This document shows, in pieces, positions 7,976 to 38,634 of a stretch of DNA of 64,000 nucleotides. This DNA is from a virus (taxonomy: Duplodnaviria; Caudoviricetes): IMG/VR virus record IMGVR_UViG_3300031994_000025, positions 76,422-140,421 of that record, one strand, 5' to 3'. The translations under genes were made by a program, and so were the position numbers. Numbering within the stretch: position 1 is the stretch's first letter; every line of letters starts with the position of its first letter. The notes beneath the pieces are model-generated. The model saw nothing but the letters and a program-made list of their open reading frames with translations. It did not search any database and was not told the DNA's origin.

Positions 7976-8280
7976 CAGACAAAAAGAGTGACCTCGGCAG
8001 TCTGCTAATACAGTTCGCCAAGGCAAATGGTCTGGAGTGGACAAAGAACGATACTGGCGTGGCCTGCCTGATGAACGGCGGTCAAACGCTAACGATATTC
8101 AACAAACCGACAATAATGGCCAGCCGCCCGCAACGAGGTATCATCTACGGAACTATATACTACCCGGATAGGAAATCCTACCCGATACGCTTCGTGGACG
8201 ATATTACAATCGCCTACCTACGCAAGAAAATAACAGAATCTTTACTCGGTCAAACTGCTGGGCAGATGGACGGAGGATGA
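7972..8280 (+). CDS. Hypothetical protein
   Basis: ATG overlaps the previous stop (ATGA). Confidence 0.55.
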   Translation: MTDKKSDLGSLLIQFAKANGLEWTKNDTGVACLMNGGQTLTIFNKPTIMASRPQRGIIYGTIYYPDRKSYPIRFVDDITIAYLRKKITESLLGQTAGQMDGG

Positions 8281-8370
8281 CGAGGGCGTCACCTTCAGAG
8301 GAAAACCGATAGAGTGAATTTCAAGGGCGAAAGCCCGACCAGTTAATAACCCAATAAAACATTAACAACA

Positions 8371-8832
8371 ATGAGATTAAGAACAGCAACATGGTTTGAG
8401 TGCAAGATCCGTTACGAGAAGACAACGGAAGAAGGTTTGCAGAAGAAAGTGACAGAACAGTATGTCGTGGATGCCCTCAGTTTCAGCGAGGCCGAGAAGC
8501 GTATCATCGAGGAAATGTCCGCCTACATCAGCGGCGAGTTTGAGGTGACCGACGTAAAGAAGGCACAGTACAAGGAGGTGTTCTTCAGCGACGCGGCGAA
8601 TGACGACCGCTACTACAAGGCCAAGCTCGCGTTCATCACCATCGATGAGCGCACGGAAAAGGAGAAGCGCAGCAACGTCACCTACCTCGTGCAGGCCTCC
8701 ACACTCGACGGTGCAGTCAAGAACATCAACGAGGTGATGGACGGCACGATGATAGACTACGAGAAGAGCAACATCGCCGAGACGAAGATTATCGACGTCT
8801 TCGAGTACAAGAAAGAGGACAGCGAAGAATAG
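8371..8832 (+). CDS. DUF4494-family protein
   Basis: WFECKIRYEK...QKKVTEQYVVDALSFSEAE, a Bacteroidota family signature. Confidence 0.85.
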   Translation: MRLRTATWFECKIRYEKTTEEGLQKKVTEQYVVDALSFSEAEKRIIEEMSAYISGEFEVTDVKKAQYKEVFFSDAANDDRYYKAKLAFITIDERTEKEKRSNVTYLVQASTLDGAVKNINEVMDGTMIDYEKSNIAETKIIDVFEYKKEDSEE

Positions 8833-8912
8833 AGAATGAGACACCGCCACTGACCCTCCCCTTGTATGGGAGGGCAGGAGTGGGGTCAGTAACTTGTAAA
8901 AATAAAAGCGTT

Positions 8913-9241
8913 ATGAATGAACAAGTAGACATTCTGAACCTGCTGAAGGACAAGTCGGGACTGCTGAAGTACATCCTCGACATGATAGAATCGAGCGACA
9001 AGTTCGCGCGAAACCTGCCCGAACTGCGCCAACGCGGCTGGTCGGAGCAGGGAATGCTCGACAAGGTGCTGGAAATCTCAGCCATCCAGTCGCAGCAGAT
9101 CAAACACTCGCACTGGTAGCCCTGCTGCTGGTGCAGTCGGACGACTTCAACTCAATGGTGGCAACACTGATGATCAAGATGGGGCGCGGCGACGAAGCCC
9201 TCCGCGCCATGTTCGATGCCTTACTAAAAGGAAAGGGGTAA
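8913..9241 (+). pseudogene. Hypothetical gene split by a 1-nt frameshift near 9105 (or a sequencing indel)
   Basis: The first frame stops at 9119; the -1 frame continues LALVALLLVQSDDFNSM...KGKG to TAA 9241, 3 nt before the next gene. Confidence 0.55.
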
Positions 9242-9244
9242 GTA

Positions 9245-9760
9245 ATGAAACGACAGAAAGTTTATATCTCTGGCCCGATGACTTCGAGCGACAGCGAGGA
9301 GCAGGTGCGGAACGTGCAGGCGTTTCACGACTGCGCCACGCTGCTGCGGGCCTCGGGCTGCCGACCCGTGAACCCGGCCAATGCCTGGCCCTGCAAGCAC
9401 CCGCGCATCTACCGCCTGCTGGAGCGCGTACTGGGCAAAGAGCGTGCCTACCGCACGGTGCTCGTCTACGACCTCTGGCTGCTGTCCCGCTCGGACACCA
9501 TCTGCATGATAGACAAATGGCAGGAGTCGAGGGGCGCGAAGATAGAGGAGAACTTTGCCTTCCGCCTGGGCATCGTCCGCTCGCACACCTACGACCAGAA
9601 GCAGCAAAAGCTCATGCCCTTTCTTCCTGGCAAGAAGAAGCGTAAATTAGACGAGCAGCAGCCCGTCAGCGAAGTCGCCGCTGCCTTCACCGCCCTCGGC
9701 AAGGCCATGAGCCGCATGGACGGCAGTAATAAAAAGAATGAACTCAAACGAAACAAATAG
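9245..9760 (+). CDS. DUF4406 / nucleoside deoxyribosyltransferase-like protein
   Basis: KVYISGPMT...VNPA...WQESRGAKIE. Confidence 0.75.
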   Translation: MKRQKVYISGPMTSSDSEEQVRNVQAFHDCATLLRASGCRPVNPANAWPCKHPRIYRLLERVLGKERAYRTVLVYDLWLLSRSDTICMIDKWQESRGAKIEENFAFRLGIVRSHTYDQKQQKLMPFLPGKKKRKLDEQQPVSEVAAAFTALGKAMSRMDGSNKKNELKRNK

Positions 9761-14088: not shown

Positions 14089-15267
14089 ATGCATAAGAAA
14101 ATAAGATACAGACTTGTGTTCAATTATGGTGGCAGGCTCAACAAGGACGGGCGTGCGCCAGTTGCCGTGGAGGCACGTCAAGGCAATAAAAAGATTCACC
14201 TTTCGTCGGATGTGGTACTTTTCCCGCACCAGTGGGACAAAGGGAAAGTCGTCGCGCACGACAATGCCGACAAGCTGACGGTCTGGCTTGTCAGATGGAT
14301 GCACCAGATTGAGGACATCGAACTCGACTCACTTCTCAGTGGACGGCCCATGACACTGACCAATCTGAAAAATGCCGTAAGGTTAGGTACCCATTCATCC
14401 GCCACCATCGGGGAGTTTGTCAGCGCCGTCATTGACAACAGCATACGCTCCAATCATACCAAGGCGGCTTATCACACCCTTGCGCGTGAAGTCGATAAGC
14501 ATGACAAGGCAGTCAAAATGAATGACATCAATCATGACTGGATAGAACGGTGGCGAGCCTCGATGCACTCCCAGGGTCTCAGCGACAACACCATTAAGGG
14601 ACGGCTGAAGCAGCTGCACTGCCTAACGCAGGAGGCCATCAAGCGAGACATTCTGACAAGCGACCCGTTCAAGTGGATCACAATCGGAAACATGACGCCC
14701 AGACACGAATATCTCACACAGACTGAAATCAGGAAGTTCGAGACGGCTCGGTTAACGGGAAAGGAAGCAAAGGTGCGTGACCTGTTCATGTTGTCTGTAT
14801 ATACAGGCCTACGATGGGGCGACCTTATCACGCTGGACGAAGCCGACATTAGCGGCGGCATCTTGAAGAAACAGATGTGCAAGACTAAGCGTGACGTTAT
14901 GATTCCTATCAAAACACTTTTCTGGGGAAAAGGTCAAAGAATAATTGACCGCTATCAACCTGTATCAAAACTATGCAAATGCGTGAAGTGCAACTCTTCA
15001 GCCAACCGTATTATTCAGGACATCGCCCGACGTATAGGCATCAAGAAAAGCGTGCATTTCCATCTGGCGAGAAAAACTTGCTCGACAATGCTCAGTTCCC
15101 TCGGTCTCCCGACAGGAGATATTGCCACCATCCTTGGGCACGCAAAGACAGAAACAACCCAGAAGTATTACATCTTTGGCAAGGAAGAGTCAATGATTAA
15201 GTCTTCAGCGAAATTGTTCCGTCAACCAAACAAGAATCCAGAACATATTAGTGAAGATGATCATTGA
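14089..15267 (+). CDS. Tyrosine recombinase, probable shufflon invertase
   Basis: Arm-binding-like N-terminus; catalytic R (GLRWGD), K (KTK), HxxR (HLAR), H (LGH) and Y (TTQKY). Confidence 0.9.
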   Translation: MHKKIRYRLVFNYGGRLNKDGRAPVAVEARQGNKKIHLSSDVVLFPHQWDKGKVVAHDNADKLTVWLVRWMHQIEDIELDSLLSGRPMTLTNLKNAVRLGTHSSATIGEFVSAVIDNSIRSNHTKAAYHTLAREVDKHDKAVKMNDINHDWIERWRASMHSQGLSDNTIKGRLKQLHCLTQEAIKRDILTSDPFKWITIGNMTPRHEYLTQTEIRKFETARLTGKEAKVRDLFMLSVYTGLRWGDLITLDEADISGGILKKQMCKTKRDVMIPIKTLFWGKGQRIIDRYQPVSKLCKCVKCNSSANRIIQDIARRIGIKKSVHFHLARKTCSTMLSSLGLPTGDIATILGHAKTETTQKYYIFGKEESMIKSSAKLFRQPNKNPEHISEDDH

Positions 15268-15279
15268 TTCTGGGCGCAG
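15268..15279 (+). repeat. Putative recombination site TTCTGGGCGCAG (cassette A)
   Basis: Immediately after the recombinase stop; inverted relative to 16277-16288. Confidence 0.7.
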
Positions 15280-15503
15280 ATGCAAATCTCAAATGCAAAT
15301 ATGTAGATAGTTTGAACGTGACAGAATCGGGCGCATACGCTATTGCCTGGAACCAAACAGAAGGTCTTTTTAGCGCTTCTGCATATTTCCTTGTATTTCA
15401 ATATAACGGTTATGGAGCGCAACTTGCCATAGGGGCTAATGGCGAATTTTTTATTCGAAGAACAGACGGTGACTGGTATAAAGTACAAACATCTAAAGTA
15501 TAA
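15270..15503 (+). CDS. Silent alternative fibre-tip cassette A
   Basis: Reads LGADANLK...DWYKVQTSKV from the site; no ATG start. Confidence 0.65.
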   Translation: MGADANLKCKYVDSLNVTESGAYAIAWNQTEGLFSASAYFLVFQYNGYGAQLAIGANGEFFIRRTDGDWYKVQTSKV

Positions 15504-15511
15504 ATACAATA

Positions 15512-15543
15512 TCGTGGGTGCAGGTATAAGTCTGCACCCACGA
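15512..15543 (+). terminator. Hairpin after cassette A
   Basis: TCGTGGGTGCAG-8nt-CTGCACCCACGA, perfect 12-bp stem. Confidence 0.7.
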
Positions 15544-15609
15544 GTTCCATGCTGATGAGAATCCTGTTTTGTTGTGATTTGCTAATAAACAAGCATCTTT
15601 GCGATAGAA

Positions 15610-15882
15610 CTGGGCGCAGGTAAAAGCATTCCATTAAAATTAGTACCCTCTGGGACAAACTTCGATAACGTGATTGAAGGCGCATATCAAGTAGGTGCTT
15701 CCGATAATGTCAGCGGCCTTCCTATCAGTAATGCAGCATGTCTCGTATTCTGCCCTGTTTACGGGAATGGCTTTTGGAGGTTTCAGGTGTGTATATGCAT
15801 GGCAAATAATCAAATCTATTTTCGCGGAGGCTATTCATCGTCATATAATGCATGGCAAAAACTGACAAGTACAGCAGTGTAA
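15610..15882 (+). CDS. Silent alternative fibre-tip cassette B (begins with site CTGGGCGCAG)
   Basis: Open frame from 15610: LGAGKSIPLK...AWQKLTSTAV. Confidence 0.65.
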   Translation: MGAGKSIPLKLVPSGTNFDNVIEGAYQVGASDNVSGLPISNAACLVFCPVYGNGFWRFQVCICMANNQIYFRGGYSSSYNAWQKLTSTAV

Positions 15883-15910
15883 AGAGGTGAGATTTTGTTC
15901 TCACCCCTTT
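15881..15910. terminator. Hairpin between convergent cassettes B and C
   Basis: AAAGAGGTGAGA-6nt-TCTCACCCCTTT. Confidence 0.6.
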
Positions 15911-15986
15911 ATAATGCTATCCATAAAGACCAACTTGTATTCTTTTTTATGCAATTATTGTTCCTTCTTCAACCCGCTTAGGAATA

Positions 15987-16415
15987 CTAAACAGTAGATG
16001 AACTTAATTCTTGCCATCCGTCATTTCGCCATGAGCCGGAAGAGTAATATGCATAACAAAAAAAGATCTTGCTACCGCAAAAAATTAATATATGTTTATA
16101 GTTATCTGAGCCGTACAACTTCATCACGATGATTCGGCAAGCGTGTGTTGTGGGCATTGTAGAGGGCTTGTTGGCAAGTGAGGCAGTAACCGTACCAGAT
16201 GTTGACTGATAACATCCATGAGAGAGTGATAATACATTAGCCCCAGAAGATAATATCGCACCTTCTGGAATGCTCCCTACGCCCAGAACTGATTGAAGAT
16301 TGGCAATGGAGATGATACCGTTGGTGTTGCCATTCTTGGCATACACGTTTGTTGCTGTTGTCAAAGTGTTTCCGAATACTATTGACAGTGCTGCTGTTAA
16401 AGTTGATACATTCAT
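15987..16415 (-). CDS. Short fibre/receptor-binding protein: constant N-terminus plus currently in-frame tip cassette C
   Basis: Last gene of the tail operon; LQSVLG|VG junction carries TTCTGGGCGTAG (16277-16288); ends GWQELSSSTV. Confidence 0.7.
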   Translation of the reverse strand: MNVSTLTAALSIVFGNTLTTATNVYAKNGNTNGIISIANLQSVLGVGSIPEGAILSSGANVLSLSHGCYQSTSGTVTASLANKPSTMPTTHACRIIVMKLYGSDNYKHILIFCGSKIFFCYAYYSSGSWRNDGWQELSSSTV

Positions 16416-16450: not shown

Positions 16451-16729
16451 TTAGAAAATAGCGGTGGCGAGGATGGTTCCTATGACCACGCCGAGAAGCC
16501 CCCAGTCCCTGCTGAAGGGAAGCGGCATTGAGCAGATGCCAAAGAGTGCGTTGACCGTCAGGAGTGACAGTGCGCCTACACTCTGCGCCATGAAGATGGT
16601 TGATACCCTCGATGCCCCGCATGCCGCGCATAGCGCAGCCGCGAGCATCGTCATGATGAACGTGATGGCAAAGAGCGTTATCGCTCCTCTGTTCGCCAGT
16701 AACAGTTGCTTGATTGATTCTTTTGTCAT
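16451..16729 (-). CDS. Small multi-TM membrane protein (possible holin)
   Basis: Three hydrophobic segments; position at the end of the tail operon. Confidence 0.5.
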   Translation of the reverse strand: MTKESIKQLLLANRGAITLFAITFIMTMLAAALCAACGASRVSTIFMAQSVGALSLLTVNALFGICSMPLPFSRDWGLLGVVIGTILATAIF

Positions 16730-16741
16730 ATCTCTTGTTTT

Positions 16742-18160
16742 TTAACTGACATATACTTCCCAGTCTGAGTTGAGCGTCTGGTTTTGCACCACGTAGCATG
16801 TAGTGCCGCTGACCACCTGCGTGACCGCCGATGTGCCCTGGAAGATAAATGGGAACGGCGGTGCCGACGTGTCGGTCTTGCACCGGTATATCTTGCCGTC
16901 TATCTGCATTAACATGCCCGCCGTGAACGTGCTGGCCGACGTGAGGTCGTCCATGTCCACGATGTTCGGTTGCGTTGCGCTGACGGTAATCGTATAGGAT
17001 GCCGACGCGCCCGTGTAGTTTGTATTTGCCGCCATTGTCGCCGTGATGGTCGCCGTGCCCGTTCCCTTGATTGTTACTACACCAGTCGAGCTGTTGACGG
17101 TGGCCACGCTGGTGTTGCTCGACGAGTAGGTGATGGAGCCTGACCCCGCGTAGACGGGCTTGTTGGCTTGGATGGTGGTGAAGCGCACGTCCATCGGCAT
17201 GGCGAAATAGCCGCAGTCGGGTATATGGTCTACTGAGCCGTCCTTGCGGTAGACTATCTGCAGGGTGTGCGTACCCGTGGGGATGGTGATGTCCACGTCC
17301 GTCCACTCCGCCGTGATATCTTTGCTCGTATGGATGACGCTCGACGGCACAGTGCTCGACGTGATGTCGGCGGCATCCCAGTTGGCGATATAGGGGAAAT
17401 CGAAACTCGATTCCATCGCCTTACCAACCTTGACGGTCATGGGGATGGCCTTGCCGGTGGTATTGGCGAACGTCAGCTTCATTACGGAGACTGAGCTTTC
17501 CACATGGTAGTTGCTGAACGACTTGAATACCTGATAGCCGCTGACGGTCTTCTCTGTGGTCTTCTCCCATCCGCTGTTTGGAGCAGTGATGACGAGGGCT
17601 TCCGTCGTGCCTGCGTCGTAGGCCGCGAGGATTGCGGATATCTGGAAGCTGATGCTGCCCGAAGCCCTGTTGATGACGAGCGTGCCGGTGTAGTAGGTGA
17701 CGGAGTAGTTGCCCGATCCCTTGCTGGTGGAGAAGCCTGTCGGAGTGATGGTGCCCGACTGGGTGGCGTTGGTCGTGGACTGCGAGAGTTTCACGCCTGT
17801 CAGGCTGTCGCCGCTGACAAGTCCGCTGACGGTCACCTGTGACGTGCTCTGGCTGATGGACTGTCCGTAGGTGATGGTCTGGTTCTTCGCCGTGATGGTA
17901 AGACCCTTCCTGCTAATGGTAAATGTACCACTTGCCGTACCTGTATAATCTCCCTTACCTGTAATAGTAATGGTGGCTGTACCCGCATTGGTGTTGTTGC
18001 TGTACGCCACGTCGTAGTCGTCGGTGGTCAGCGTTACGCCGTTCAGCGTGACGGTCGGTGTCGGCGTGTGCGCGCTTCCGTTGTAGGTCTGGCTGCTCGC
18101 CGTCACAACAGCAGTGCTGATGTCCGTCCGAAGGGATTGTAGTAGCGTTCTTCTTCTCAT
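16742..18160 (-). CDS. Ig-like (MBG/Big_2-type) repeat virion-associated protein
   Basis: Thr/Ser-rich beta repeats (YSNNTNAGTATITITGKGDYTG; YSSSNTSVATVNSSTGVVT). Confidence 0.75.
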   Translation of the reverse strand: MRRRTLLQSLRTDISTAVVTASSQTYNGSAHTPTPTVTLNGVTLTTDDYDVAYSNNTNAGTATITITGKGDYTGTASGTFTISRKGLTITAKNQTITYGQSISQSTSQVTVSGLVSGDSLTGVKLSQSTTNATQSGTITPTGFSTSKGSGNYSVTYYTGTLVINRASGSISFQISAILAAYDAGTTEALVITAPNSGWEKTTEKTVSGYQVFKSFSNYHVESSVSVMKLTFANTTGKAIPMTVKVGKAMESSFDFPYIANWDAADITSSTVPSSVIHTSKDITAEWTDVDITIPTGTHTLQIVYRKDGSVDHIPDCGYFAMPMDVRFTTIQANKPVYAGSGSITYSSSNTSVATVNSSTGVVTIKGTGTATITATMAANTNYTGASASYTITVSATQPNIVDMDDLTSASTFTAGMLMQIDGKIYRCKTDTSAPPFPFIFQGTSAVTQVVSGTTCYVVQNQTLNSDWEVYVS

Positions 18161-19897: not shown

Positions 19898-20827
19898 TTA
19901 GGCCACGAATGTGGCCAGTTCCTCGGCGGTCACGCGCTCGGGGATCTCAAACGTCACGTCGACGGCGTTGTTGCCGTCGGGCGTCAGAGCCGTGCCGTTC
20001 ACCTTGACGCTCTGGATGGCTGAGTCGGCCTTTGCACCCTGTGCGGCGGTGGCGAAGTCGGAAGCCTTCGAGCCTGAGTCCTTCAGGTTGCCGTTGGCAT
20101 CCAGGCCTGCGAAGTTGTCGGCGGTAGCACCGCTGACGATGTCGGCCTTGTCGGCGATGTCGGCTGCCTGCAGTGCGGTGTCTGCCTTGCCGAGGGAAGC
20201 CTGCACGTCGGAGGCGAGGTCGGTCTTGGCAATACCCGTAGCGGGCTTGTCATACTTGGCGTTCCAAGCAGCCTTGTCACTTGTGGTCACGTGGATGTCG
20301 GTGTCGGCAGCGTGCAGGTCGTAGGCATCCTTCAGGGCCTTACCCTTGGAGCCCTCGTAGGCAGTGCCCTGTGTCTCGCCGAGAGCCAGGCCGGCTGCGA
20401 TAGGAACGTAGGTCGTTCCGCCCCAGCGGTAGGTCTGGTTGTTGGAGAGGTCGATGTAAATCTTACCGCCCTCAGCGGGAATCTCCGTGGTGTAGGCGTT
20501 CTCCTCGTAGAACTTGCCGTCAGTGGCGTTCAGGTAGCCTTCCAGAACGTCGTCAACAAAGGACGGCAGCTGGCTTGACGGCACCTTGCCGTTGGCATCG
20601 AGGGTAGCCACGCCGTTGTTGGTGCCCTTCTCAGAGGCCAGCACGTAGGAACCTGCTGACTGGAAGGTTGACTGGTCGAGCAGCGTGCCGTCCTGGAGGA
20701 CGAGCTTCGGTGTTGCGCCTTCGGCAACTGCGGTTACGGCGATGAATGCGCCCACAATCCAAGGCTTCATCGAGTTGGTCCATACTGTCTGGAGGTCAGC
20801 CAGGGCCATGTACTTTTCTTTTGTCAT
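19898..20827 (-). CDS. Head/tail fibre-like protein
   Basis: KGTNNGVATLDANGKVPSSQLP and HVTTSDKAAWN fibre repeats. Confidence 0.75.
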   Translation of the reverse strand: MTKEKYMALADLQTVWTNSMKPWIVGAFIAVTAVAEGATPKLVLQDGTLLDQSTFQSAGSYVLASEKGTNNGVATLDANGKVPSSQLPSFVDDVLEGYLNATDGKFYEENAYTTEIPAEGGKIYIDLSNNQTYRWGGTTYVPIAAGLALGETQGTAYEGSKGKALKDAYDLHAADTDIHVTTSDKAAWNAKYDKPATGIAKTDLASDVQASLGKADTALQAADIADKADIVSGATADNFAGLDANGNLKDSGSKASDFATAAQGAKADSAIQSVKVNGTALTPDGNNAVDVTFEIPERVTAEELATFVA

Positions 20828-37982: not shown

Positions 37983-38634
37983 ACATCATACGCTTCTTGT
38001 CCTTTTTCTCTTCCTCCGGCTTTGCAGGTTCTGTCTTGTCGGCAGCGGTTTCCGTCGCAGTGGCATTCGCTATATCCTTCTCGTCGGGTTCGACTTCCTC
38101 CGCAGTCTTTGCGTCGCCGTCCTTTCCCATCACCGAGAAGCGCTTCCAGAGCGCGTCTATCTCATCCTGCACGGCGGTGGCGGTGGCAGTGAAGTGACGG
38201 CCGTAGCGCAGGTTTACGGGGCCTGTGACGGCGAAGTCTGGCAGCAGCAGGGCTGTGTCAGGCTGGGCGTAGTCGACGAGCGTGAGACGGTCCTTGAAAG
38301 GATTCTCCGCAAACCACTGCGAGGGCATGGGCGACTGCTCCGGCGAGAGGTCGGCCACGATGGTCATGTGGGCGACGTAGTTCAGGTAGCCATTGCCGTC
38401 CATGCGGGCACGCTGTTTCTTCATCCACTTTCCGATGATCTCCGCTGCCTGGTCGGGTATCGACGGGGCGGCTATCAGCACTTCCGTCTCACAGTAGCGC
38501 GTCAATATTGCTGGCAGAAGTTCGGTCAGGCTCAGGTCGCCGTAGCCCTCAAAGTCTGTCTTGCCGTTAGTTCCGATAGCATCCCGCATTTCTCTTACAT
38601 GCTTTTGTGCGCAACAAGGTTCTATTAAACGCAT
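37972..38634 (-). CDS. Hypothetical protein
   Basis: ORF downstream of the putative tail tube gene. Confidence 0.7.
   Translation of the reverse strand: MRLIEPCCAQKHVREMRDAIGTNGKTDFEGYGDLSLTELLPAILTRYCETEVLIAAPSIPDQAAEIIGKWMKKQRARMDGNGYLNYVAHMTIVADLSPEQSPMPSQWFAENPFKDRLTLVDYAQPDTALLLPDFAVTGPVNLRYGRHFTATATAVQDEIDALWKRFSVMGKDGDAKTAEEVEPDEKDIANATATETAADKTEPAKPEEEKKDKKRMMFRR

Follow-up and report, generated by a model that had tools for sequence, protein, structure and literature searches.

At the locus described here, the last gene of a phage tail operon, which encodes a small tip protein, converges with a tyrosine recombinase gene on the opposite strand, and two further coding segments lie between them (Table 1). 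The whole stretch of DNA that was analysed (the window) covers 64,000 nucleotides of a 140,421-bp phage record, IMGVR_UViG_3300031994_000025. Upstream of the tip gene, the same operon holds a membrane protein gene and a gene for an Ig-domain structural protein, and the gaps to the next gene in this part of the operon (16451..18160) are 12 and 35 nt. A first-pass annotation had described the two segments, starting at 15270 and 15610, as ATG-less cassettes on the strand opposite to the tip gene, and this is what we find: both are open in the same Leu-Gly frame as the gene. Cassette A has no ATG and only a TTG at 15264, with an in-frame stop at 15258; cassette B has no ATG either and an in-frame stop at 15586. 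Other details of that description were borne out as well. The three tips end alike (WYKVQTSKV, WQKLTSTAV and WQELSSSTV), a hairpin lies past each cassette, and the constant N-terminus, put at about 44 aa, is indeed short, with 43 residues ahead of Leu-Gly. The hairpin between tips B and C, which are arranged tail to tail, could act as a bidirectional terminator.

Table 1. Features of the locus, in positions of the window
Feature	Position	Strand	Details
Tyrosine recombinase, presumed shufflon invertase	14089..15267	+	392 aa; transcribed towards the cassettes
Site A	15268..15279	+	TTCTGGGCGCAG; 2 nt past the recombinase stop
Silent cassette A	15270..15503	+	77 codons from Leu-Gly, plus stop; fusion product would be 120 aa
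Hairpin after cassette A	15512..15543		12-bp perfect stem, 8-nt loop
Site B	15608..15619	+	AACTGGGCGCAG; AA at -2 and -1, unusual for the family
Silent cassette B	15610..15882	+	90 codons from Leu-Gly, plus stop; fusion product would be 133 aa
Hairpin between tips B and C	15873..15918		second determination, 15886-15905
Tip C, currently expressed	15987..16286	-	99 codons from Leu-Gly, plus stop
Site C	16277..16288	-	TTCTGGGCGTAG (minus strand); within the expressed gene, at ...LQSV|LGV
Constant N-terminal part of the tip protein	16287..16415	-	43 codons before Leu-Gly; carries the only start codon
Tip gene	16415-15987	-	last gene of the tail operon, 142 aa
Membrane protein	16451-16729	-	92 aa; upstream, same operon
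Ig-domain structural protein	16742-18160	-	472 aa; upstream, same operon; Pfam MBG_2 and Big_2; PHROG structural protein with Ig domain

The three tips are headed by one short sequence. In all 140,421 bp of the record there are exactly three copies of the 12-mer WWCTGGGCGYAG, one inside the tip gene and one at the head of each cassette, and the cassette copies are inverted relative to the one in the gene. The gene copy sits at 16288-16277, at the Leu-Gly junction where the first-pass annotation had placed a site, and the copy that it had seen abutting the recombinase stop does so, the TGA at 15265-15267 lying 2 nt ahead of the core. The shorter pattern CTGGGCGYAG occurs four times in the window, against 0.44 expected, a count reached in none of 100 shuffles. 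At site C, the flank TCAGTTCTGGGCG is common to the expressed genes of the related loci L003, L004 and L081. In a logo of 65 sites of the family, T stands at -1 in 54 and at -2 in 47, the two positions at which site B has AA. The fourth copy of the 10-mer, at 38263, is without the flank, and we take it as chance. Two other candidate elements were set aside: a paired-site pattern, CGCCCAGA-N17-23-TCTGGGCG, gave mostly single chance palindromes when scanned for, and a possible arm-type motif, ATATGCAWA, is not enriched around the locus (2 found against 0.42 expected, with 10 of 100 shuffles reaching 2).

The cassettes carry alternative versions of one domain. By BLASTP, cassette B matches tip C over its full length (E = 3e-7, 28% identity). 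Cassette A shows no similarity to tip C in a pairwise comparison and matches a family profile made without it (hhalign, E = 5.9e-5, probability 65%). Both tip C and cassette A are modelled with the knob fold that phage fibres and receptor-binding proteins have, and sharing this fold does not in itself show function. For tip C, AF2 gives a beta-sandwich over residues 48-142, which VIA aligns to the receptor-binding proteins of P68, phi812 and 80alpha and to R1/R2 pyocin fibres with Z scores of 9.2-7.8; the best of these, to the P68 fibre, has an rmsd of 2.3 A over 81 aligned residues. Phage fibres or receptor-binding proteins fill the top 12 rows of this ranking, and below them Z falls to 5.1. 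The model of cassette A, built from the family alignment, reaches a pLDDT of 89.2, and VIA relates it to R1/R2 pyocin, P68, phi812, phi11, T4 gp34 and Mu fibres (Z 8.0-6.2), with 18 fibre or receptor-binding-protein rows at Z 8.0-5.6 before a drop to 4.8. Foldseek alone returned weak rows (E 0.2 in PDB, 0.007 in BFVD), and the VIA re-alignment was needed. The first-pass annotation had named unrelated folds as counting against a tip switch; A and C are instead both predicted knobs, and B shares its 28% identity with C.

That annotation had also suggested predicting the structures of the fusion trimers. The 142-aa form is predicted to be a homotrimer, with an ipSAE of 0.87; the best of 3 controls scores 0.01. 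Of 30 calibration proteins solved as pairs, 20 reached this mark, as did 1 of the 23 solved as single chains, with the proviso that the trimer run used its own alignment and three copies and the calibration did not. At least 94% of contacts are shared between the runs, the partner pLDDT is at least 92, and most contacts of the predicted trimer come from the constant N-terminal part. The tip protein has no match in Pfam, PHROGs or NCBIfam, and neither it nor the locus has a DNA or protein relative among GenBank phages. The exact 142-aa product is on record in one other contig only. The exact junction of constant part and core gave 0 matches in metagenome and viral collections, which possibly leave out the phage's own records.

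The recombinase matches Phage_integrase (PF00589, 8e-17) and Phage_int_SAM_5 (3.5e-11). Its catalytic set is complete: R242, K265, H325, R328 and Y361 are invariant in five relatives, and H351 is kept in 4 of the 5. The FimB/E-type tyrosine-invertase models of NCBIfam give about 20 bits, against cut-offs of 221-222. In a tree, a branch with 100/100 support separates the ten recombinases of this clade from 13 ordinary integrase homologues of Bacteroidales, none of which has such a site at its stop codon. A shufflon adjoins nine of the ten, and the relatives that have one beside them are 73, 72, 57, 50, 41, 38, 36 and 34% identical. The layout is conserved: after a tail operon comes a small tip gene that has a site within it, then in-frame cassettes without a start codon, each behind an inverted copy of the site, and finally a convergent tyrosine recombinase. 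What varies is the number of tips, from 2 (L003) to about 26-31 (L093, L081 and L004). The constant N-terminal part is homologous to the N-termini in L003, L081 and L113. The first 239 nt of the recombinase gene are 100% identical between the window and L113, and the rest of the gene only about 50-70%; the cassette sets are unrelated, and homology is back in the constant part. This pattern suggests that the recombinase body and the cassettes are inherited together.

Recombination at the core has left its trace in a sibling lineage, in which four independent assemblies, at least 99.9% identical, join one constant region to two different tips at an 11-nt core. Two of them, L115 and L116, were put together from two samples with two assemblers. 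Up to L113:3451 they share 99.94-100% identity with L113 and L114; past this point they match the silent cassette at L113:4011 with 100% identity. The two alignments overlap in precisely the 11-nt TTCTGGGCGTA. A joint of the L115 type is unreachable from the L113 arrangement by one inversion, so two inversions, or a deletion between direct sites, are needed.

We therefore read the locus as a three-tip shufflon, a site-specific inversion switch for the tip of a small trimeric tail protein in a 140-kb rumen phage, with a probability of about 80%. This is the reading with which the first-pass annotation had started, and it is supported by the layout kept around nine of the clade's ten recombinases, by the knob folds modelled for tips C and A and by the sibling-lineage joints at the core. 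The mechanism that we propose starts from the arrangement now present: 43 constant residues, then Leu-Gly and a knob of about 97 aa, the Leu-Gly codons lying inside the 7-bp core CTGGGCG. The two other knob cassettes, on the opposite strand, would be silent for want of a start codon and promoter while having the same core, the same frame and a hairpin of their own. The adjacent recombinase would pair the core in the gene with the inverted core at a cassette. Strand exchange, which we infer to fall within the identical 7 bp, or next to them, would flip the intervening DNA. The constant part would then be fused in frame to tip A or tip B, giving a protein of 120 or 133 aa in place of the 142 aa with tip C, and the released tip would turn silent. 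If tips are swapped by such inversions in this phage, its population would therefore make virions with one of three receptor-binding tips, and the tips would in turn set the host range.

Could the repeats be nothing more than a coding coincidence, a conserved Leu-Gly linker in decayed tail-fibre duplicates that lie beside a plain integrase? The conserved DNA does amount to only 7-12 nt and does encode a conserved peptide junction, but we disfavour this explanation as scarcely credible. The codons are identical at all sites of a locus, even where the core differs: in L093 about 26 sites, the expressed junction among them, read CTGGGAG, and CTGGGCG is absent, a concerted change that one would predict if partners have to carry the same 7-mer. 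Decay is also hard to reconcile with cassettes that lack a start and yet stay open, since in four related loci each of the 65 CTGGGCG sites opens a Leu-Gly reading frame of 55 aa or more. Moreover, the core abuts the recombinase stop in eight loci (L003, L081, L094, L095, L096, L099 and L113, besides the window), and the recombinant joints fall exactly at the core. It is likewise very unlikely, in our view, that the design is that of a shufflon whose three-tip copy no longer turns over and is effectively fixed on tip C. Site B, with its atypical AA flank, may be degenerate, and no variant arrangement was seen for the strains of two giant relatives, G001 and G002, in contigs from other samples (99.95% and 100% identical, respectively). 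Contigs that carry a recombinase identical to the window's list no genes across the 1,184-nt shufflon gap, which weighs on neither side. Against this, both silent cassettes of the window have kept intact frames, intact 7-mers and their own hairpins, the recombinase is intact, and the sibling lineage has recombinant joints.

An unlikely but more serious alternative gives the enzyme two jobs, namely lysogenic integration at an attP elsewhere as well as inversion of the shufflon. Its three-domain architecture is that of an integrase, with an arm-binding domain of integrase type (Arm-DNA-bind_5, E = 8.6e-5) that scores 23.4 bits, where the cut-off is 22.6. No other protein of the 140-kb genome (G000) matches PF00589, just as each of five related phage records has a single tyrosine recombinase, and G000 has no match to PF00239, the serine recombinases of the resolvase family. 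Its best match among GenBank phages and nearest cultured relative, at 32% identity, is the annotated integrase of a temperate Bacteroides phage. Finally, L002, a close relative, has an intact orthologue of the recombinase but no shufflon. Its place within the shufflon clade, however, points to secondary loss, and the linkage to a shufflon persists down to 34% identity. In all contigs seen, the recombinase has phage genes on both sides and no tRNA (none lies within 10 kb of the gene in the window), and the contigs examined contain no host junction. A 177.6-kb contig, examined as a possible integrated prophage, lacks the end gene that was looked for.

Switches of this general design are known. 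In R64 and other IncI plasmids, the tyrosine recombinase Rci acts on short sfx sites that have a 7-bp core and are conserved on one side only, and multiple inversions give alternative C-termini, seven tips in all, of the adhesin PilV. That adhesin belongs to a conjugative pilus and is encoded on a plasmid, whereas the window specifies a phage protein. In phages, Gin (Mu), Cin (P1) and Min (p15B) swap tail-fibre C-termini by inversion and thereby change host range (summarised in PMC6109161). Unlike the window's recombinase, whose genome is without a resolvase-family protein, these are serine invertases that work with an enhancer and Fis.

Two described systems come closer. The Rin shufflon of Bifidobacterium breve/longum prophages (Mavrich et al. 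2018, PMC6109161) uses a phage-encoded tyrosine recombinase and shares the layout: the recombinase at one end, the constant N-terminus of a receptor-binding protein at the other, and start-less variable C-terminal cassettes between them, each behind a short asymmetric site (the 11-bp rix in Rin), with tips very dissimilar in sequence. The likeness is one of layout. Rin has no arm-type domain and its prophages have a separate integrase, whereas the window enzyme has Arm-DNA-bind_5 and is the sole recombinase; the Rin site is TTCCCTAACCC and the window core CTGGGCG, the host phylum differs, and the constant part in the window is only 43 aa of a stand-alone 142-aa protein. BV01-like phages of Phocaeicola vulgatus (2026 preprint, PMC13596623) are, like the window phage, Bacteroidales phages in which a recombinase, of a class that the paper does not state, flanks a multi-cassette region. 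This region spans 1.7 kb where a tail-fibre gene has its distal end; its motif is directional and 10 bp long, and its six isoforms were confirmed in reads. The motif, TGGGAGAACT, resembles the L093 core CTGGGAG and the AGTTCT flank of the window's expressed site, a likeness that we treat as a lead. The BV01 switch alters the end of a large carbohydrate-binding fibre; the one in the window would alter the whole knob on a 43-aa stub. Since such host-range switches have been described in a few phages of the gut, as the Rin shufflon in 2018 and the BV01-like one in 2026, the window copy adds little alone.

Its interest lies in its relatives. We see about even chances that these loci form an undescribed shufflon family of Prevotella phages, in which a stand-alone trimeric adhesin (120-190 aa) receives its tip from a choice of 2 to about 31 knobs, with the window at the small end. 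If this is true, several features would be new: cassettes would move between phage backbones together with the part of the recombinase that binds the core and carries out catalysis, as one module that breaks at the boundary of the arm domain; the 7-bp core could shift from CTGGGCG to CTGGGAG at all sites of a locus in concert; and a diversity-generating retroelement could take the place of the module at the same position of the genome. The change of core would also be a natural experiment on the bases that a tyrosine invertase requires. As the family shows, an enzyme of large rumen phages that is annotated as an integrase can be reliably tied to what would be a tropism switch. To our knowledge, Prevotella has no well-developed phage-host system, and the dozens of small natural knobs that the family offers on a common 43-aa stub could help to map Prevotella receptors. 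Bacteroidales hosts vary their surfaces by phase switching, and we envision that a built-in library of receptor-binding tips would be the phage's counter-move.

The window covers the right-hand 64 kb of an IMG/VR phage record that is 140,421 bp long and has a completeness rating of 100%. The structural genes in the window end in a small tip gene that is followed by silent cassettes and a recombinase on the opposite strand. We put the probability that this locus is a shufflon by design at roughly 90%, and we think it quite likely that the window copy is active in the way the first-pass annotation had read it, as an inversion switch for receptor-binding tips of the tail. That reading is supported by the layout of the family, by recombinant joints at the core in a sibling lineage and by the modelled knob fold of tips A and C.

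Features of the shufflon locus in the window and in related phages
Feature	Coordinates	Strand	Remarks
Window: fibre-like protein	19898-20827	-	PHROG tail and tail-fibre matches
Window: 472-aa Ig-domain protein	16742-18160	-	
Window: 92-aa membrane protein	16451-16729	-	
Window: 142-aa tip gene	16415-15987	-	35-nt gap after membrane-protein gene; last of structural-gene run
Window: tip-gene site TTCTGGGCGTAG	16288-16277	-	contains codons 44-45 (Leu-Gly)
Window: cassette A site TTCTGGGCGCAG	15268-15279	+	opens Leu-Gly frame, 77 codons to stop
Window: cassette B site AACTGGGCGCAG	15608-15619	+	opens Leu-Gly frame, 90 codons to stop
Window: tyrosine recombinase, 392 aa	14089-15267	+	stop 2 nt before first core
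L003			recombinase 50% identical to window; one silent cassette
L113			recombinase mosaic relative to window; five silent cassettes
L004 (giant relative G001)			recombinase 73% identical; 31 sites over 8.4 kb
L081 (giant relative G002, complete 144-kb phage)			recombinase 41% identical; 29 sites
L094, L095, L096, L099 (Prevotella MAG contigs)			recombinase 57, 36, 34 and 38% identical; core directly after recombinase stop; cassettes to contig limit
L002: retroelement reverse transcriptase	8165-9541	-	
L002: 182-nt template and variable repeat	9602 and 10672		target is tail-fibre gene

The elements described earlier are indeed present: the expressed gene, which ends in tip C, contains the core CTGGGCG, and two ATG-less cassettes on the opposite strand, each with an in-frame stop just upstream, open on the same core in the Leu-Gly frame. 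The first site abuts the recombinase gene as had been noted, the TGA being its last codon, while the constant N-terminus, put at about 44 aa, amounts to 43 residues before Leu-Gly. The hairpins reported after cassettes A and B lie 3' of cassette A and between the tail-to-tail tips B and C. The window contains four copies of CTGGGCGYAG where 0.44 would be expected, and this 10-mer with its flank, a 12-mer, is found only at the three sites in the whole genome. The fourth CTGGGCGTAG, at 38263-38272, comes without the WW flank, a cassette-like frame or a partner and is taken as chance.

The shufflon segment has 41% G+C, the genome on either side about 57%. Cassette regions have 38-43% G+C in all four phages compared (window 15268-16290, L004:1872-10269, L081:6965-15720 and L003:7150-7710); their flanking DNA has 48 to 65%, and the recombinase gene of G002 67%. 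The cassettes may stem from a common pool passed between phages. Immediately upstream of the tip gene, the window, L003 (7880-8191, minus strand) and L113 (3001-3279) each encode a small membrane protein (92-103 aa), an unexpected place for a membrane protein, between two presumed virion proteins.

In the mechanism that we propose, the core in the minus-strand gene would recombine with the plus-strand core of A or B, inverting 15280-16276 or 15620-16276, respectively. The 43-aa stub would thereby be joined in frame to A (120 aa) or to B (133 aa), and the released tip would enter the silent store, every tip carrying its own terminator. All partners have the same 7-mer; the next base is C at A and B and T at C.

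The 142-aa protein has no family match in Pfam, PHROGs or NCBIfam. AlphaFold2, run on an alignment of 64 family sequences, predicts a pair of helices at the N-terminus, followed from about residue 48 by a beta-sandwich (pLDDT 73.9). Over 81 residues this tip C sandwich superposes on the distal domain of the P68 phage fibre with Z 9.2 and an rmsd of 2.3 A; it superposes as well on the receptor-binding proteins of phages phi812 and 80alpha, on the pyocin fibres R1 and R2 and on others. Phage fibres or receptor-binding proteins account for all of the first 12 matches, after which Z declines from 6.5 to 5.1. When folded by itself, cassette A (pLDDT 89.2) finds the same set plus the fibre of phage Mu, 18 matches before Z drops to 4.8. 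Between tips B and C, identity is 28% (E 3e-7). Tip A does not match tip C in a pairwise comparison but does match a family profile from which A had been left out (E 5.9e-5, probability 65%). A trimer is predicted when the 142-aa protein is modelled in three copies; the score is 0.87, and the best among three controls scores 0.01. Of proteins solved as pairs, 20 of 30 attained this mark, and of those solved as single chains, 1 of 23 did, counts that hold only roughly for a run with our own alignment and three copies. In the predicted trimer, contact agreement is at least 94%, pLDDT is at least 92, and the constant 43 residues make most of the contacts. Tips A and C are both modelled with the fibre knob fold. 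Judging from the fold and by analogy with the known systems, we infer that the three tips may bind different receptors.

The recombinase carries the Pfam domains Arm-DNA-bind_5, Phage_int_SAM_5 and Phage_integrase, and R242, K265, H325, R328 and Y361 are invariant between it and five relatives. It is the sole tyrosine recombinase of the genome, which has no serine recombinase. In relatives L001 (4531-5772) and L002 (4547-5783) the recombinase adjoins the genes of a Cys-rich cassette that in the window lies about 18 kb away (33-37 kb), so the order of modules around the recombinase varies between sibling phages. An ENA contig of 177,591 bp (ERZ27256871) has identical recombinase and tail genes and exceeds by 37 kb the 140-kb record, which is itself rated complete; a concatemer, a larger variant and an integrated copy are possible explanations.

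Relatives gathered by recombinase and site-pattern searches share one layout where they bear a shufflon: tail genes come first, then a small gene with a constant part ending in ...(A/Q)SV-LG at TCAGTTCTGGGCG, then cassettes and a convergent recombinase. Each of the 65 CTGGGCG sites in the four best loci opens a frame of at least 55 aa in Leu-Gly register, with cassettes tiling the region. The site logo is A-t-n-T-T-CTGGGCG without conservation on the tip side; the site is thus short and conserved on one side only, like that described for rix of the Rin shufflon. In a maximum-likelihood tree from which no row was dropped, the ten recombinases fall on one side of a 100/100 branch and, on the other, the 13 best other homologues from a sample of 400 genomes belonging to the same bacterial family; none of these 13 has a site at its stop codon.

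Many sites in L004:2680-9709 and L081:8819-15233 stand head to head, 19-22 nt apart, with the same asymmetric spacer in both orientations (e.g. L004:8556/8579 and 9686/9709), a trace expected from earlier inversions of larger segments. One 185-aa cassette (L081:8271-8825, minus strand) has a second in-frame site (...DLASL-LGAF...) between two knob domains and could place an extra knob before another tip; some other cassettes end in a similar linker (DNFGCSTLAEL...).

Evidence for recombination at the sites comes from a sibling lineage, found by exact match of the 92-aa neighbour protein and about 88% identical to the window in the tail genes (blastn, 3,242 nt). In L113 and L114, from two samples, the constant part is joined to tip 1. 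Contigs L115 and L116 were built from two further samples with different assemblers; they match L113 at 99.94-100% identity up to L113:3451 and, beyond it, the silent cassette at L113:4011 at 100%, the alignments overlapping in the 11 nt of TTCTGGGCGTA. As a repeat of 11 nt would not suffice to produce an assembly chimera, both joints are real DNA. Since the silent copy in L113 is in direct orientation, the second form requires two inversions or one deletion, which these short contigs cannot distinguish. In another pair of related phages (L082 and L092) the constant part is 95.8% identical and homology ends at the core. Other samples yield contigs that are identical to G001 and G002 and keep the same arrangement, with no flipped form seen; turnover is thus not fast enough for every sample to differ. 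A further sibling contig carries an IS605 OrfB/Cas12f-like TnpB gene (L117:8655-9803, minus strand) near a 3,656-aa gene.

The window and L113 also meet at a mosaic boundary inside the recombinase gene. Over the first 239 nt, the part for the arm-binding domain, the two genes are 100% identical (window 14089-14327, L113:6045-6279); thereafter identity is about 50-70%. The two loci have unrelated cassette sets and become homologous again about 26 nt past the core, within the constant part. The core-binding and catalytic body of the recombinase was therefore exchanged together with the cassettes.

Two relatives with recombinases 72% identical to that of the window depart from the pattern. L093 has zero CTGGGCG but carries about 26 similarly built CTGGGAG sites, among them the expressed junction TCAGTTCTGGGAG: one core base is changed in concert across all sites, as predicted if overlap regions must be identical. 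A hairpin (AAAGTGGGGA...) that recurs in 22 copies closes the cassettes of this shufflon (L093:5523-12804). L002 has no shufflon and instead holds a diversity-generating retroelement between the recombinase and tail-fibre genes (L002:7180-11850), with 16 of 17 template-to-variable mismatches at template A. Because L002 is sister to L093 inside the clade (99/97 support, maximum-likelihood tree), the absence of the shufflon looks like loss.

The kind of system is already known, and the window is a small addition to it. Programmed inversions in tail-fibre genes have been catalogued in bacterial genomes, BV01-like phages of Phocaeicola vulgatus have a read-confirmed six-isoform shufflon (2026 preprint, PMC13596623), and the Rin shufflon of Bifidobacterium prophages (PMC6109161) has the same parts. 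Rin uses an armless tyrosine invertase beside a separate integrase, whereas the window recombinase has an arm-binding domain and no companion. The BV01-like motif TGGGAGAACT, compared by motif only, resembles the CTGGGAG core of L093. What is new for the window copy is the predicted fold and trimer; for the family, it is the recombinant joints of the sibling lineage, the mosaic junction within the recombinase gene, the concerted change of the core and the replacement of the shufflon by a retroelement in one relative, so that in sister phages one locus is held by two different tropism-diversifying systems.
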